Positions 483 through 5,427 of a stretch of DNA of 6,209 bases are shown piece after piece. The stretch lies in NCBI GenBank assembly GCA_003345555.1, contig PRDJ01000028.1:1-6209 (forward strand), given 5' to 3'. A model generated the notes under the pieces. That model ran no database searches. It saw nothing but the letters and a program-made list of their open reading frames with translations, and had not been told where the DNA came from. The DNA comes from Candidatus Thorarchaeota archaeon. Its GTDB lineage: Archaea; Asgardarchaeota; Thorarchaeia; Thorarchaeales; Thorarchaeaceae. Numbering within the stretch: position 1 is the stretch's first letter; every line of letters begins with the position of its first letter. The position numbers and the translations under genes were made by a program.

Positions 483-1388
483 CTAAGAACCTCTATGTGT
501 GAAGAGCCACTCAGTCAGGCCGGTTCCCTTCCTTTTCTGTTTCCCGTACTCATGCATGGCCATATTCTCGAAAAGATCCGTTGAGCCACCGGGGAACTGT
601 CTTGAGAATTTGACAAAGGAAGTCGGTGATATCAACACAGACTCAAGTGTGTAGTTGGACCCATCCACACCCGACACGTGGGTGGTTGCTCGGATAGGCA
701 TTTGCTCCTTGCCGCTAGAGAAGCCGGTCTCCACTTCAACACTCGAAATTGGCATGTTTCCGCGTCGCGATGATATGAATCCAGAAGAGTGAACTTGCCC
801 CCTGACAATGTCGCGCCTTAGTCCAATGGAGAATGTATCGAACTGAGCATGAAGTGCGTACCAGCCCTCGATGTGCCAGTCGCGAGCACCCCAACTCTTG
901 TCGCGCTCCCCGAGCCCGTTAATTCTGACTCGCTGGCCGTCAGAAAACTGAATTGTGCCGGTAACACTCTCAGACTGTTCAAAGTGGCCACTCCATGATG
1001 TACCACTTCCCGTGCCGAAGTCATACACTGGAAACCGGGCCTTCCACCTCAAATCGACTGCTGTGTTCTCCCCATGAAAAGTGACTCTCCACTCGTTGAG
1101 TGGCTTTACGAGTTCATAGGCAAGATGACTGTCGGCAAGAGACTCCACGAAACTCTCTGGAATTGGTCCATCCGGCTCTACAAAGTATGTTTCGCGTTTG
1201 TCATGATGAAATAGAGCGAATACAAACTCTCTCTTACGAACATTCGGAAGCAAGCCTATGGTGGTGAAGCCGGAGATCCCTCTATCGGCGTCAACGAAGT
1301 TGAAGTAGTAGCTCTCGCGCCAGTCAGGCTGCTCAGAGGGCTTGTGAGCATACTCGTCAGCGATATCAGGTAAAGTCATCTCGGTCAT
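483..1388 (-). CDS. DUF7064/DUF7065-like protein, predicted CrtC/AttH/tocopherol-cyclase-like double beta-barrel; putative lyase, hydratase or cyclase
   Basis: 301-aa ORF with an ATG start 20 nt after the stop of the upstream gene. Motifs typical of this group: DWRESYYFNF, xxPLNEWRVTF, VDLRW, HFEQ...VTGTI, GxGERDKSWGARDW. The sequence is rich in aromatic residues and beta-strand-like segments. Family assigned by motif recognition, without a database search. Confidence 0.7.
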   Translation of the reverse strand: MTEMTLPDIADEYAHKPSEQPDWRESYYFNFVDADRGISGFTTIGLLPNVRKREFVFALFHHDKRETYFVEPDGPIPESFVESLADSHLAYELVKPLNEWRVTFHGENTAVDLRWKARFPVYDFGTGSGTSWSGHFEQSESVTGTIQFSDGQRVRINGLGERDKSWGARDWHIEGWYALHAQFDTFSIGLRRDIVRGQVHSSGFISSRRGNMPISSVEVETGFSSGKEQMPIRATTHVSGVDGSNYTLESVLISPTSFVKFSRQFPGGSTDLFENMAMHEYGKQKRKGTGLTEWLFTHRGS

Positions 1389-1408: not shown

Positions 1409-2614
1409 TTACTCTGGAAGGAGATAGAGTGTGGGATCCTTATCCTGTTCCTCCTGCTCTCGAAACATTCTGAAGAATGCAGGGTCTGCATCAACCTCCA
1501 TGAAGATTGGCAGGTACTCGTCCAGAACTTTCGGTGAAAGGCCCCAGTCAATCTTCTGCGTTATGCCAACTTGATTCGTATATCTTGCAAAGCCCCTCCA
1601 ATAAGCAATGGCTCCAGCAGTAAGAAGCTGCTTTCTGTCCCACCCTGCAAACTTCATGTAAAGCTCTGCTTGGGCCTTGTCTGCGGCTTCGCCATAGGCA
1701 GAAAGCTCGTCGAGACCCAACGGAACAATCTTGGCGCCACGCTTCGCGTACGCCATCATCTTCGTTACCAGTCCCGCATACTCAGTTGGTTCAATTGTCA
1801 TCGTACCGACATCATTAAACTTTGCAGTCGCACCCTTTAGAACCATGCCAATACCCAATGTGGATGAAGGGAGCTTGGCCTCGGTATTGGACCACGGCAT
1901 CCAGAGTTCGCCTTTTCCGTCGTGCAGGTTCGTGTACTCCGAAACAACTAGAACCTCACCCTTGTCTAGTGGGTATGGTCCATGGTCTGTGATCTTCGCC
2001 CGTGCCTCACACTCGTCCATGAATGCATACAGGTCCACAGAACCAACAGCACGTCTGGCCTTGCTGACCTGTACTTCATTAACCGGCTGCATGCGATCGA
2101 GCAACCACCCGACGGTCTTCCTGTCAAACGCCAGATTTACGCCGCCCGAAGCTGAGACCGTCGGCTTACCTGTGTTGAAGTAGTTCGTGGCGAGTCTGTA
2201 CCAGTTGTCTAGCATAAAGAGCCACTGCTCGCGTTTCTCCTTGGGCTCCTTCGATGCGTCGCCCTCGCACTTGTTGAAAACGACTCCCATCCTTGCAAGA
2301 GAGTAGTAGAGCCACAGGTAGGTTATAGAGAGAGCTTGAACCTCTGAGAGCAAAGTCTTGCTTCTCTTTGCTAGCTCCTCAGCCGATATCTTCTGCCAAA
2401 CCTGCTTCATCACGTCGTAGAGACATGCATACGTCTGGTAGAATGCGACACAAATGTACGCATTGACGGGGAAGAGCTTTGATTCAAGCAGACCCCGTTC
2501 CATCAGTATATTTGAGAAGACTGACGAAAGGTGAGTAATCTGTTTGTTCGCGTCTCGAACTTGCAACCAAATCACAACTCCGTGCAGAATCGCGCCCGCG
2601 TTCTGAAAACGCAT
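1409..2614 (-). CDS. Uncharacterised soluble protein (~385-401 aa), candidate acceptor-binding subunit of a split PEP-utiliser/dikinase system
   Basis: Long 401-aa ORF with natural composition and no clear transmembrane segment. Conserved-looking blocks: ESKLFPVNAY, ECEARAKITDHGPYPL, LWMPWS, FNDVGT...EPTEY. Start is uncertain: ATG 2614 (GAGGTG only 2 nt upstream) or TTG 2566 (GGAGTTGTGAT 4 nt upstream, giving MQVRDANKQI...). Function is inferred from gene context. Confidence 0.75.
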   Translation of the reverse strand: MRFQNAGAILHGVVIWLQVRDANKQITHLSSVFSNILMERGLLESKLFPVNAYICVAFYQTYACLYDVMKQVWQKISAEELAKRSKTLLSEVQALSITYLWLYYSLARMGVVFNKCEGDASKEPKEKREQWLFMLDNWYRLATNYFNTGKPTVSASGGVNLAFDRKTVGWLLDRMQPVNEVQVSKARRAVGSVDLYAFMDECEARAKITDHGPYPLDKGEVLVVSEYTNLHDGKGELWMPWSNTEAKLPSSTLGIGMVLKGATAKFNDVGTMTIEPTEYAGLVTKMMAYAKRGAKIVPLGLDELSAYGEAADKAQAELYMKFAGWDRKQLLTAGAIAYWRGFARYTNQVGITQKIDWGLSPKVLDEYLPIFMEVDADPAFFRMFREQEEQDKDPTLYLLPE

Positions 2615-2655
2615 CCCACCTCTGAGGCAATATTAAACGTTTCAGACCTTCAGAT

Positions 2656-2665
2656 GATATATATC
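2656..2665. promoter_or_regulatory. Palindromic TATA-like element GATATATATC in the divergent intergenic region
   Basis: Perfect 10-bp palindrome about 40 nt upstream of ATG 2614 on the minus strand. This spacing is compatible with an archaeal TATA box plus a short 5' UTR. A second minus-strand candidate, TTTAATAT, lies near 2631-2638. Confidence 0.35.
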
Positions 2666-2725
2666 GGCGGGTTTCGATTAATCAACTGTATCTTGGCATC
2701 CGAGTGATAAAATGGCACTAAGAAT

Positions 2726-2755
2726 GCGCCAGTCTTTTAAGACACCTTCTGGCGC
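2726..2755. promoter_or_regulatory. Inverted repeat enclosing a TATA-like box (candidate operator/promoter of the rightward operon)
   Basis: GCGCCAG(2726-2732)-16 nt-CTGGCGC(2749-2755). Inside it, GTCTT-TT-AAGAC (2732-2743) contains CTTTTAAG (2734-2741), about 35-50 nt upstream of the start at 2776 or 2791. Confidence 0.4.
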
Positions 2756-2775
2756 TGTGCGAAAAAGCAGACCTG

Positions 2776-3141
2776 ATGGAACTGACTGCCTTGAGAAGAG
2801 TGGGACAAGGATTGATCACCCTGAAGCTCAGCGCCGAAGGGGAGATGAGAGTCGTCAAATCAATCCAAGATGTCGTCCGGCTTTGGAAGGAGGGACCTGA
2901 AGGCAAGATAGCTCTTGTTGAAGATGCAGGTACGACAACTCTCGCACCAGTATTGTCCAAACTGGCAGGTGTGGTCTGCACATCCGGGGCCCTTGGCTCG
3001 CATCTAGCTATCGTTACACGTGAATTCCAGATTCCCGCACTCATGGGAACTAAGCTTGAGACATCAGAGAGCTTGGATAGAAGAAGAGTCGTCATCAAAC
3101 CTGAAGAAGGCACTGGCGGTGTCCTTCTGGTCTCTGACTAA
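2776..3141 (+). CDS. Stand-alone PEP-utilising enzyme mobile (phospho-histidine swivel) domain protein
   Basis: 121-aa ORF. GVVCTSGALGSHLAIVTREFQIPALMG matches the PEP-utiliser signature (TxxGGxTSHAAIVARExGIP); the catalytic His is codon CAT at 3001-3003. Alternative start TTG 2791 (MRRVGQG..., preceded by GGAACTGA plus 5 nt). Confidence 0.9.
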   Translation: MELTALRRVGQGLITLKLSAEGEMRVVKSIQDVVRLWKEGPEGKIALVEDAGTTTLAPVLSKLAGVVCTSGALGSHLAIVTREFQIPALMGTKLETSESLDRRRVVIKPEEGTGGVLLVSD

Positions 3142-3181
3142 CAGACATACCACTCAGCAATCTCGTCGGGAGTAAGATGAA

Positions 3182-4198
3182 TTGCCTCGTTATAACTCAC
3201 CAACCAAGTCATCGGGGTCAACACGGTCATGCATTTCCTTTTTCGAGACGATAGGCGATGACGACTTGGAAAGATTCGGCGGCAAGGCAGTGAATCTTGC
3301 TCGGCTACGCAGGGCAGGATTGAAAGTCCCAATCGGGTTCTCCATATCATCGGAGTGTTTCTCTGAGTTTCTGGCCGGTCTCGATGGATCGGACAGAATA
3401 TTGCAGCAGCTGGAATCGGCCACGGACTTGGAAGAAGCCCTGAATTGCGCTGCCAATCTTGAAAGCCTCGGTTCATCTTGGAGAATGTCCGGCGAAACCA
3501 AGAAACAGATCATAGATGCATTTACGCTACTGAGATCGATGGTACATGAACACGGTGCGGGATATGCGGTTCGGTCGTCAGCAAACGTCGAGGACAGTAG
3601 GCATATCTCGTTTGCAGGTCAGGCAGAGAGTTTCTTGTGTGTCAATGGAACTGAGAATGTCATTGATTCTGTTAGAAGAACCTGGCAGTCAGCCGTCTCC
3701 TTCCGCTCAGCTCTCTACCTGCGTGAAATGGGGGTGCCCCTAAGCAGCGTGAAGATGGGTGTAATCGTGCAAGTGATGGTTGACGCAGATATTTCAGGTG
3801 TCATGTTTACAGCCAACACTGTAACGAATGACCCCTCTCAAATCATCATCGAATCCACATGGGGCTTAGGAGAACCGTTGGTCTCAGGGAAAGTAATCCC
3901 AGATACCTTCTTGCTTCATAGGAAACCTTTGAAAATCGTGCAGCGCCTGCTTGGGTCAAAGGCTACAATCGCCACTATCGCCATGTCCAACCAGCAGCAA
4001 CGAATCATGCTTGAGGACACCCCCTTGAGTAAACGAACTGCGTTTACCTTGGATGATGCCGAACTGCTGAACCTAGCTCGATTGGGTATGAAGGTGGAGA
4101 ACATACTGGGTGGTCCTCAAGACATAGAGTGGTGTATGAAAGACTCTCAACTTATTGTGCTCCAAGCAAGACCAGTGACAACAATGAAGTCATGCTAA
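3182..4198 (+). CDS. Stand-alone PEP synthase/pyruvate phosphate dikinase-type N-terminal ATP-grasp (PPDK_N) protein
   Basis: 338-aa ORF with a TTG start; an in-frame TAA at 3173 fixes the upstream limit. All hallmark motifs are present: FGGKAVNL, YAVRSSANVED...SFAGQ, MGVIVQVMV...SGVMFT, ESTWGLGEPLVSG...PD, PQDIEW...LQARPVT. It ends 5 residues after ARPVT with no His or acceptor domain, so it is not a complete ppsA. Confidence 0.93.
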   Translation: MPRYNSPTKSSGSTRSCISFFETIGDDDLERFGGKAVNLARLRRAGLKVPIGFSISSECFSEFLAGLDGSDRILQQLESATDLEEALNCAANLESLGSSWRMSGETKKQIIDAFTLLRSMVHEHGAGYAVRSSANVEDSRHISFAGQAESFLCVNGTENVIDSVRRTWQSAVSFRSALYLREMGVPLSSVKMGVIVQVMVDADISGVMFTANTVTNDPSQIIIESTWGLGEPLVSGKVIPDTFLLHRKPLKIVQRLLGSKATIATIAMSNQQQRIMLEDTPLSKRTAFTLDDAELLNLARLGMKVENILGGPQDIEWCMKDSQLIVLQARPVTTMKSC

Positions 4199-4248: not shown

Positions 4249-4533
4249 TCAACCGTGCATGCGCATCTTGTATAGTGACTCCCCGGGCGAGACCTTGATA
4301 GCCTCCACCGGACACGATGAGACGCATTTCCCACAAGAAGTGCACACGTCCGGCCAGACAGGAGTGACTACCCACTTCTCCGGGTTGTAGGGATCAGGAT
4401 GCTCCTCGAGGGTTGGATGCATGAGGAATACCGCAGGATCGCAGACGTTCAGACACTTCCTGCACTCTCTGGGGTCCATCTTTCCATCAGGTCCGCACTT
4501 CTTGTAGTCGATCTTAATCTTCGTCTTGCCCAT
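4249..4533 (-). CDS. Small ferredoxin-like protein, probable 2[4Fe-4S] with an atypical first cluster motif
   Basis: One canonical motif CTSCGKCVSSCP and one variant C-x10-CRKCLNVC-DP. Start moved from GTG 4542 (track) to ATG 4533 because GAGGTG lies 6 nt upstream of it; 94 aa. Ends with tandem stops TGA TAG. Confidence 0.88.
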   Translation of the reverse strand: MGKTKIKIDYKKCGPDGKMDPRECRKCLNVCDPAVFLMHPTLEEHPDPYNPEKWVVTPVWPDVCTSCGKCVSSCPVEAIKVSPGESLYKMRMHG

Positions 4534-4539
4534 TCGACC

Positions 4540-4545
4540 CACCTC
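4540..4545 (-). promoter_or_regulatory. Shine-Dalgarno site GAGGTG for the small ferredoxin
   Basis: Minus strand reads TAG-AAGAGGTG-GGTCGA-ATG, complementary to the 16S 3' end (AUCACCUCC), immediately after the stop of the upstream gene. Confidence 0.7.
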
Positions 4546-4547
4546 TT

Positions 4548-5417
4548 CTAGAAGTTCCGAGCCTGTCCTGGCACAGACTCCCTCGGTACCAATTGAAGGG
4601 CGTCATTCTTGCACGCGTGACGACAAACGCCACAGCCGAAGCATTTGTCGTGATTGATTATCACCTTGTTAATCGACGGGAGATATCGGAGAGCTCCAAA
4701 CTGACACATCCTTACACACGCCTTGCAGCCTTGGCAGTTATCTCGGTTGACTGTCATGAGATACTCTCCCTTCAGGACTGTCCTCAGACCAAAATCATTC
4801 CTTAGGCGCAGACCTCCACACTCCGGGCTCTCGCATGAGCAAATCGCATTGATGTAAGGGACCGGCTGGAACCAGACAGACGCTACGTATCCTTTCTTGT
4901 TCTGTGTCTCAAGGGCTGCGATTGCTTCCTCTCGATCTAGCTGCCATTTCTCATCGACCGGAATGTATCTTGTGAGCTTTGGAATGATTTGGCTCAAACA
5001 ACCGAAGTTGATGCATACGGCGTCTTTCACTCCCCTCTGCATCCACCTGCAGACGCAGTAGTTCTTTATGATAGGCTCAGCCGCTAAGTTGCCAAGAATA
5101 TGCTGAGCATCCTCAAGGGGAATGACCTGTCCGAAATGACCATCAGCTCTGACCGGATTTCGCCCTGGCTTCTCACTGTGTATCATCTTCTCGGCATTTG
5201 ACCGTAGAAAACGTCCAATGAGCGGCATCTGCATCTTGTATCCTAGACCAATGGAACTGAAGCCCATGATTTTTCGGATGAACAGAGTCTCCATGTTCTT
5301 CCATTGTTCTTCCAAGTACTCTTTCATATTGTATTCGTCTGCAAGCTCATAGGAGTAATTGCGGGCATTCATGTACCACTTGCCGCCAGCACCATGCTTC
5401 ATGCACCAGTCACACAA
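4548..5417 (-). CDS. Multi-cluster iron-sulfur protein: C-terminal 2[4Fe-4S] ferredoxin domain plus Cys-rich N-terminal and central region
   Basis: C-terminal motifs CQGCKACVRMC and CFGCGVCRHAC; additional CDWCMKH, YCVCR, VCINFGC and ICSCESPEC; 17 Cys in total. Likely start is TTG 5417 (MCDWCMKHG..., GGTGAT 4 nt upstream) rather than GTG 5426, which is part of that SD sequence. Confidence 0.88.
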   Translation of the reverse strand: MCDWCMKHGAGGKWYMNARNYSYELADEYNMKEYLEEQWKNMETLFIRKIMGFSSIGLGYKMQMPLIGRFLRSNAEKMIHSEKPGRNPVRADGHFGQVIPLEDAQHILGNLAAEPIIKNYCVCRWMQRGVKDAVCINFGCLSQIIPKLTRYIPVDEKWQLDREEAIAALETQNKKGYVASVWFQPVPYINAICSCESPECGGLRLRNDFGLRTVLKGEYLMTVNRDNCQGCKACVRMCQFGALRYLPSINKVIINHDKCFGCGVCRHACKNDALQLVPRESVPGQARNF

Positions 5418-5421
5418 TGAT

Positions 5422-5427
5422 ATCACC
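5422..5427 (-). promoter_or_regulatory. Archaeal-type Shine-Dalgarno site GGTGAT
   Basis: Minus strand reads CC-GGTGAT-ATCA-TTG-TGT; GGTGAT is complementary to the 16S tail AUCACC. Confidence 0.6.

Follow-up and report, generated by a model that had tools for sequence, protein, structure and literature searches.

The window, that is, the whole stretch of DNA analysed here, is 6,209 nucleotides long and constitutes an entire contig (C28) of a 2.28-Mb genome that is 93% complete. The host is an Asgard archaeon, with top-scoring matches to Thorarchaeota, in agreement with a preliminary description of the same DNA that had proposed an archaeal host. Six complete genes were present, from 483-1388 through 5426, and four of these form the subject of this report: a predicted phosphotransfer module made up of a swivel protein, an ATP-grasp protein, a divergently encoded protein without a known family (hereafter called X385) and a double-barrel protein. 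The features of the window are listed below.

483-1388, minus strand: protein of 301 amino acids (aa) with DUF7065 and DUF7064, an AttH-type double beta-barrel (from Pfam, a structural model and synteny)
1409-2566, minus strand: X385, 385 aa, no family; the open reading frame (ORF) is open to 2614 (401 codons) and the start was placed from orthologues
2567-2775, no strand: divergent intergenic region with candidate promoters (from an alignment with three related Thorarchaeota loci)
2776-3141, plus strand: PEP-utilizers swivel domain protein, 121 aa (PF00391), with His76 at nucleotides 3001-3003
3182-4198, plus strand: PPDK_N ATP-grasp protein, 338 aa (PF01326); the TTG start at 3182 is uncertain
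4249-4542, minus strand: ferredoxin-like protein, 97 aa, second gene of an Fe-S pair (Fer4 families)
4548-5426, minus strand: Cys-rich protein, 292 aa, with a C-terminal 2x[4Fe-4S] domain (Fer4 families, residues 224-283 only)

The two genes on the plus strand encode recognizable parts of a dikinase. The 121-aa protein matched the phosphoenolpyruvate (PEP)-utilizers family PF00391 with an expectation value (E) of 4.5e-11 over profile positions 2-72 of 72. Its loop reads TSGALGSH76, and His76 was invariant in 43 aligned sequences, fused forms included. The 338-aa protein matched PF01326 nearly full length (E 9.7e-77, profile positions 3-313 of 328), and among NCBIfam models it fitted PEP synthase (E 4.3e-73) far better than PPDK (E 3.7e-5). 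A PPDK_N ATP-grasp domain accompanied by a swivel domain with a catalytic His in a Gly-rich loop places the system in the dikinase superfamily. Both the intact PEP-synthase-type ATP-grasp gene at 3182-4198 and the separate His-swivel gene, with its His codon at nucleotide 3001, had been recognized in the preliminary description and were borne out by these searches. Neither a PEP-utilizers_C nor an Enzyme I domain was found in the window, again as described earlier, and the apparent lack of a TIM barrel sets the system apart from PEP synthase and PPDK proper. The possibility that a TIM-barrel subunit was encoded elsewhere had been raised in the same description; the sole PF02896 (PEP-utilizers_C) match in the genome lay within an otherwise normal 952-aa PPDK reading frame on contig C12, and a search of the genome for a free TIM barrel returned none. 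A separate RPH-like gene (rifampin phosphotransferase-like) of 900 aa is located elsewhere in the genome. Domain searches further showed that the swivel protein, the ATP-grasp protein and the divergently encoded protein are separate gene products, so that all three modules are free-standing, as had been proposed.

The divergent ORF at 1409-2614 comprises 401 open codons, and the preliminary description had accordingly given its product a length of 401 aa. Because the orthologues begin at its residue 17, and because a TTG at 2566 is preceded by a conserved Shine-Dalgarno-like GGAGTTGTGAT, the X385 gene most likely spans 1409-2566 with a TTG start and encodes 385 aa. At least 352 homologues share 60-93% identity with X385, and 163 relatives emerged when 1.84 billion cluster representatives were searched exhaustively with HMMER. 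The structure predicted with AlphaFold2 (AF2; predicted local distance difference test (pLDDT) 96.7, predicted template modeling score (pTM) 0.93) comprises a long bundle of helices, an antiparallel sheet at the centre and a further helical part at the C-terminus. Neither the single X385 sequence nor a profile built from 72 sequences found a match in Pfam, NCBIfam or the PDB sequences; the NCBIfam models for RPH, PigC and PRK08296 (PpsA-like) were among those without a match. When the whole model was compared with the PDB by Foldseek, the best E value was 0.14, with no match to RPH, a TIM barrel or a kinase; VIA-align against 48,161 representative chains gave a best Z of 4.4 (4.5 on a second look), with RPH unmatched. 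Since the published two-component dikinases have an RPH-type substrate domain, and neither the sequence nor the structure of X385 found a match, X385 looks like a different type of acceptor module, a missing match being no proof of a new fold. The C-terminal extensions of some longer X385 relatives (P0179, P0239 and others) were considered as DUF7065 domains and rejected; they matched no Pfam family either.

The genomic surroundings of these genes were surveyed in 80 loci from GTDB species genomes, covering the Thor-, Hermod-, Hod-, Loki-, Frey-, Jord- and Atabeyarchaea, the Methanomethylicia and the Bathyarchaeia. The swivel gene adjoins X385 in 67 of the 80; the two are divergent in most lineages, whereas in the Frey- and Jordarchaeia they share an operon. 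Three of the 163 relatives (P0155, P0172 and P0268) are natural fusions of an N-terminal PEP-utilizers domain with an X385-like domain. A complex of X385 and the swivel protein was predicted with a score of 0.87 (0.86, 0.89 and 0.87 in separate runs), against 0.00 for the best of three controls; in calibration, 58 of 80 solved complexes scored at least this high, as did 2 of 110 mismatched pairs, counts that apply only roughly here since own alignments were used. The runs shared at least 98% of their contacts, with a pLDDT of at least 90 for the partner. In the model the His loop of the swivel protein (residues 70-76) contacts R24, R172, E187 and R189 of X385. Conservation within the distant X385 family was higher at this interface (0.486) than elsewhere (0.360), a level reached by 6 of 10000 random residue sets. 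The predicted complex supports binding of the swivel protein to X385 without showing it, and the synteny, the fusions, the predicted complex, the conservation and the lack of a free TIM barrel in the genome together support X385 as the partner of the swivel domain. A neighbourhood survey and a docking model had both been suggested in the preliminary description, and for the pair of swivel and X385 both gave the expected result: swivel and X385 genes recur side by side and fused, and His76 is predicted to dock on a conserved, Arg-rich face of X385. The accompanying claim that the divergently encoded protein supplies the acceptor site is therefore supported as far as the partnership is concerned; the acceptor chemistry would follow by inference.

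The gene most tightly linked to X385 is, however, the DUF7064/65 gene, which the preliminary description had omitted. It adjoins X385 in 79 of the 80 loci, the lone exception being interrupted by a contig end. Among 151 evenly sampled Asgard genomes, which are related and hence not independent, X385 was found in 38, DUF7065 in 39 and both in 37. The three genomes with just one of the two are 83-88% complete, and the matches in them were partial or weak. Paralogues of X385 and DUF7065 also stand as adjacent pairs. Presence is patchy within families (9 of 26 genomes in the family to which the window belongs), and repeated joint gain or loss is therefore indicated.

The 301-aa product was matched by Pfam PF23213 (E 1.1e-13) and by NCBIfam NF053593, and its AF2 model (pLDDT 94.5) is a double barrel of the AttH type. 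The top Foldseek matches were three PDB entries of 25-phosphosteroid lyase (25-PSL) dating from early 2026 (9g4c, 9g2i and 9fzn; E 1.9e-15 to 2.5e-13, template modeling (TM) score about 0.75), followed by pericyclases, kievitone hydratase and AttH at about 1e-9. VIA-align gave Z values of 24-27 across AttH-fold chains, that of 25-PSL being 24.3 with a root-mean-square deviation of 3.3 over 271 residues. As a single sequence the barrel protein had no significant match among the PDB sequences; a profile of its family matched 25-PSL and no other entry significantly (E 2.8e-6), with shared YYFN and GxRDxSWGxR motifs. In 50 orthologues of the barrel protein G160, R162, D163, S165, W166, G167 and R169 were invariant. 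The motif aligns with GSRDRSWGVR of 9fzn and GSRNRSWGVR of 9g4c, in which the Asp is an Asn. Because this replacement occurs in an entry solved with phosphate and product, it suggests a catalytic role for the Asp, a suggestion that draws on the deposited variant and not on a paper. The barrel protein has in common with the 25-PSL family both the closest fold similarity and the conserved GxRDxSWGxR motif, and the fold, the motif and the co-occurrence lead us to predict that it is a phosphate-eliminating C-O lyase related to 25-PSL. A literature search on the function of DUF7065 and of Rv3169 yielded nothing usable.

Several related loci place these genes in other contexts, and two of them, L098 and L015, add support for the link between X385 and the lyase. 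A Hermod-like genome carries a paralogous module (L098:4346-11852) in which all four parts are repeated, namely a swivel, an ATP-grasp, an X385 paralogue and a DUF7064/65 paralogue, together with genes for a 1019-aa protein with about seven PAS domains and a 148-aa DSP-type phosphatase. A bacterial metagenome locus (L015:1-12211) encodes a 794-aa fusion of a swivel with an X385-like domain and a DUF7065 relative of 372 aa, whose motif reads GFRDRSWGSR. It further holds genes for a protein combining PPDK_N with a swivel, a P450, alcohol and aldehyde dehydrogenases, two APH-type kinases and a Y_phosphatase3, a gene content suggestive of a cluster for the catabolism of a hydrophobic alcohol. At another bacterial locus with such a fusion (L013), there are genes for a P450, for an aldehyde dehydrogenase and for a protein resembling the SCP2 sterol carrier. 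In the Frey- and Jordarchaeia, an operon with the order X385 paralogue, DUF7065, swivel and X385 lies within arrays of up to five paralogous genes for B12-binding radical S-adenosylmethionine (SAM) enzymes of about 535-541 aa (loci L057-L061 and L063; for example, L060:1687-3294 and 7799-9424). The best model matches of these enzymes, below threshold, were the hopanoid-associated HpnJ and BchE. B12-radical-SAM enzymes and an AttH-like hydratase are known to modify archaeal tetraether lipids (10.1101/2025.10.20.683597). As a set, these contexts hint at what may be a hydrophobic, isoprenoid-like substrate.

Taken together, the module is, with slightly better than an even chance, a split phosphotransfer relay joined to a phosphate-eliminating lyase, that is, an ATP-driven dehydratase that phosphorylates and then eliminates. 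By the chemistry of its family, the ATP-grasp protein would use ATP to phosphorylate His76 of the free swivel protein with release of AMP and inorganic phosphate (Pi). The phosphorylated swivel would then dock on the Arg-rich conserved face of X385, as the synteny, fusions and predicted complex suggest, and would pass its phosphoryl group to a hydroxyl of a small molecule bound by X385. The co-transcribed DUF7064/65 protein, to judge from its fold, its motif and its strict co-occurrence, would eliminate the phosphate with formation of a C=C bond. Overall, ATP would drive the dehydration of an otherwise unreactive alcohol, which is probably tertiary and hydrophobic, for example, an isoprenoid-type compound; in some lineages the Fe-S pair at 4249-5426 may act on the product. 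A precedent exists in Sterolibacterium, where the 25-hydroxysteroid kinase (25-HSK) and 25-PSL jointly remove water from a tertiary alcohol with expenditure of ATP (PMC7411048, PMC8449060). Because tertiary alkyl phosphates have a phosphoryl-transfer potential equal to that of ATP, the ordinary kinase is fully reversible (PMC8449060). A dikinase spends two anhydride bonds in converting ATP to AMP, and the phosphorylation step would therefore become irreversible. The preliminary description had envisaged phosphorylation or activation of a small molecule; the phosphotransfer core of that proposal is retained, and given the lyase-like DUF7064/65 gene the likely overall reaction shifts from phosphorylation to ATP-dependent dehydration.

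A number of observations weigh against this scheme. The linkage of the ATP-grasp gene is its weak point: the gene adjoins in 48 of the 80 loci, and searches of three Methanomethylicia genomes and a complete Freyarchaeota chromosome found no free-standing ATP-grasp protein. These four genomes keep the swivel, X385 and lyase genes, and their only PPDK_N domains lie in enzymes of 817-914 aa. In a Jordarchaeum metagenome-assembled genome of unknown completeness, there was no match whatsoever to PPDK_N. A second X385 paralogue occurs in the same operon in the Frey- and Jordarchaeia genomes; none was present in the Methanomethylicia genomes. In these genomes the free swivel could be charged in trans by one of the long enzymes; alternatively, X385 could be the donor site and not the acceptor site, with the acceptor held by the barrel protein. 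As regards the lyase, the identity of the barrel protein to 25-PSL is just 14-17%, the same fold occurs in hydratases (CrtC, kievitone hydratase and Hgs; 10.1101/2025.10.20.683597) and in pericyclases, and the catalytic residues of 25-PSL can be inferred solely through the deposited D-to-N variant.

Four other explanations were weighed. In one, which appears unlikely, X385 binds the donor (for instance, a phosphorylated metabolite, pyrophosphate or a nucleotide), the swivel carries the phosphate to a substrate held by the barrel, and the barrel protein both accepts and eliminates it, the ATP-grasp protein, where present, being an alternative or additional donor. The persistence of swivel, X385 and DUF7065 without a free ATP-grasp protein in the Methanomethylicia and the Frey- and Jordarchaeia speaks for such an arrangement, as do the two X385 paralogues flanking the lyase and swivel genes in the latter and the fact that X385 and DUF7065 form the tightest pair. 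Where the ATP-grasp gene is present, however, it lies translationally adjacent to that of the swivel protein and provides the relay with a standard donor; in the genomes without it, the swivel could be charged in trans by a full-length PEP synthase or an RPH-like enzyme; a relay needs just two docking sites, and the confidently predicted one is on X385, which matched no nucleotide-binding family in Pfam or NCBIfam. Another explanation concerns the order of events: DUF7064/65 would belong to the AttH/CrtC type as a hydratase, a cyclase or a binding protein and would make or deliver a tertiary alcohol, which the dikinase would then phosphorylate as the end product, for activation, detoxification or a head-group-like modification. 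VIA-align Z values are as high for AttH (26.9), for kievitone hydratase (24.5) and for pericyclases (23.6-24.9) as for 25-PSL, and one AttH-like protein of archaea has been proven to hydrate unsaturated glycerol dialkyl glycerol tetraether (GDGT) lipids (10.1101/2025.10.20.683597). Against this, 25-PSL leads the Foldseek matches in identity and, by five orders of magnitude, in E value, the family profile finds 25-PSL alone through the Asp-containing motif, and the related loci show phosphatases (DSP-type in L098, Y_phosphatase3 in L015) and not hydratase partners, and we regard this second explanation, too, as improbable.

The remaining two concern the relay itself. The idea that the ATP-grasp and swivel proteins are two parts of a PEP synthase or PPDK whose barrel is encoded elsewhere, with X385 an unrelated neighbour, is disfavoured and scarcely credible: although the ATP-grasp protein scores best against PEP-synthase models, the single PEP-utilizers_C domain of the genome resides in an intact PPDK, no free barrel was found at 93% completeness, and the swivel is bound up with X385 through the fusions, through synteny that extends over several phyla and through the predicted complex. 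A regulatory relay resembling the phosphotransferase system (PTS), in which the swivel would phosphorylate or bind X385 to control the activity of X385 or of the lyase, is very unlikely. The PAS-rich 1019-aa sensor and the DSP-type protein phosphatase inside the paralogous module L098 would suit such a role, but neither gene is conserved across the other 80 loci; moreover, the swivel-X385 fusions resemble enzyme architectures such as RPH and PpsA (PMC12167813), and the Arg residues of the docking site, which scarcely vary, are consistent with the transfer of a phosphoryl group to a bound ligand.

Within the preferred reading of a relay coupled to a lyase, a more specific proposal is rather unlikely: an ATP-driven dehydratase acting on tertiary hydroxyls of isoprenoids (such as the hydroxylated membrane lipids hydroxyarchaeol and hydroxy-GDGT of archaea, or sterol- or hopanoid-like side chains in anoxic sediments), possibly a deoxygenase together with the Fe-S pair, and with a new acceptor fold. 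If this were true, Asgard and related archaea would gain an anaerobic route for adding or removing double bonds in saturated isoprenoid chains.

The Fe-S pair was examined as a further part of the module. The 97-aa ferredoxin gene adjoins in 45 of the 80 loci, at positions that differ between Thorarchaeota and the Loki- and Hodarchaea. The N-terminal 220 aa of the 292-aa protein belong to no known family and carry CxxC, CxC and CxCx4C motifs, which read CDWC, YCVC and CSCESPEC in the window; this part is present in 47 of the 80 loci at 62-96% identity, with 32% in Atabeyarchaeum (L071). A search of the PDB sequences with the 292-aa protein matched only the C-terminal ferredoxin domain. In Thorarchaeota the pair converges on the ATP-grasp gene, whereas the Loki- and Hodarchaea have it downstream of the barrel gene, a change of position between lineages that argues for a real link. 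As an obligate part it was rejected, since 12 sampled Asgard genomes that lack X385 hold orthologues of high identity, and X385-positive Hermod-like and Frey- and Jordarchaeia genomes hold only paralogues at 30-35% identity. A Heimdall locus (L097) has the Fe-S pair alone, with no X385 or DUF7065 gene nearby, and at a Korarchaeum locus (L096) a gene of the 292-aa type lies where the contig ends, and no gene for a small ferredoxin was called next to it. The pair is best viewed as an optional redox accessory outside the obligate core. Separately, the 292-aa gene is the most conserved of the block, and its family is archaeal, has multiple paralogues and occurs in 74 of the 151 sampled Asgard genomes; the host genome itself has a second copy, 47% identical (G000:C35:22476-23111).

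Other neighbours were rejected as parts of the module because they follow lineage synteny: an HDAC-family (histone deacetylase) protein, an alpha/beta hydrolase, a methyltransferase, a URO-D-like protein, an acetyl-CoA synthetase and a TrmB regulator. The histone-deacetylase-family gene lies within a few kb of the module in 30 loci of Thor- and Lokiarchaea, at differing positions (for example, L016:14740-15957), and an AMP-forming acetyl-CoA synthetase recurs in 13 loci; the recurrence may reflect lineage synteny or a separate acetylation-control unit. A 148-aa protein without a Pfam or NCBIfam match adjoins the ATP-grasp gene on the opposite strand in 22 loci of the Loki/Hod type (for example, L079:8027-8473), with 63-93% identity among loci. 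In the intergenic region 2567-2775, alignment with the three related Thorarchaeota loci showed conserved A/T-rich boxes at about 2630-2638 and 2733-2742. These are candidate TATA elements of the two divergent archaeal operons, a promoter role suggested by sequence; no inverted repeat was found in a search of the same region. Truncated ORFs at both contig ends (3-407 and 5531-6208, both on the plus strand) encode hydrophobic, membrane-like products without a Pfam match.

A search of a literature library found no description of the module or of such a free-standing swivel protein, archaea included. Phospho-His dikinase chemistry and the logic of kinase and lyase are already known; what is new is that the system is divided among three proteins, has an apparently different acceptor fold, joins a dikinase to a lyase resembling 25-PSL and occurs in archaea. 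A fully split dikinase with an apparently different acceptor fold is new because the published two-component relatives keep the His domain fused to an RPH-type domain. Swivel dikinases of one or two chains are hereby extended to a fully modular relay of three proteins, whose acceptor subunit comes from a large uncharacterized family (at least 352 close homologues and 163 clusters) with a model that has no solved structural relative. The link to a recently solved phosphate-lyase family suggests that dehydration by phosphorylation and elimination is widespread in anaerobic archaea, Asgard lineages among them, and extends beyond the sterol-degrading Betaproteobacteria, and the patchy distribution across phyla points to a transferable metabolic trait. 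Four families annotated as hypothetical receive testable names, and research on archaeal lipids and hydrocarbons gains a concrete candidate for oxygen-independent chemistry at unactivated carbons.

The closest functional comparisons are with the phenylphosphate synthase PpsAB from Thauera, CreHI from Corynebacterium (4-cresol) and HpeHI from Rhodococcus (hydroxyphenylethanones), which share with the window a separate PEP-synthase-type ATP-grasp protein and the lack of a TIM barrel. With these systems and with RPH the module would also share a phospho-His swivel shuttling between an ATP site and a non-pyruvate substrate site, and the expected stoichiometry is the same, ATP being converted to AMP, Pi and the phosphorylated product (PMC12167813, PMC4844700). 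In PpsAB, CreHI and HpeHI the His domain is fused to the RPH-type substrate domain (PMC12167813), which upholds the earlier statement that known small-molecule dikinases keep it fused. The swivel is C-terminal in those proteins, whereas it is a free 121-aa protein in the window and N-terminal in the fused relatives, and the gene order of swivel followed by ATP-grasp likewise differs from theirs. PpsAB, CreHI, HpeHI and RPH act on phenols or rifampin in bacteria; the module described here is archaeal and coupled to a lyase.

With 25-HSK and 25-PSL of Sterolibacterium denitrificans the module has in common the pairing of a kinase function with an AttH-fold protein and the GxRDxSWGxR motif. 25-HSK is a 40-kDa kinase of the phosphotransferase family that produces ADP, is reversible and is encoded apart from the lyase gene (PMC8449060), whereas in the window a three-part dikinase stands beside the lyase gene and no APH-like kinase is present; the barrel protein is also about 60 aa shorter than 25-PSL. 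The double beta-barrel fold is shared with the AttH/CrtC hydratases (Z 26.9 to AttH, 2ich), among them the archaeal hydroxy-GDGT synthase Hgs, which acts on tertiary carbons of isoprenoid membrane lipids and is reportedly largely missing from Asgard archaea (10.1101/2025.10.20.683597). These hydratases add water to a double bond without ATP, whereas the barrel protein is nearer in sequence to the phosphate lyase and, unlike them, is paired with X385 (79/80 loci) and usually with a swivel domain.

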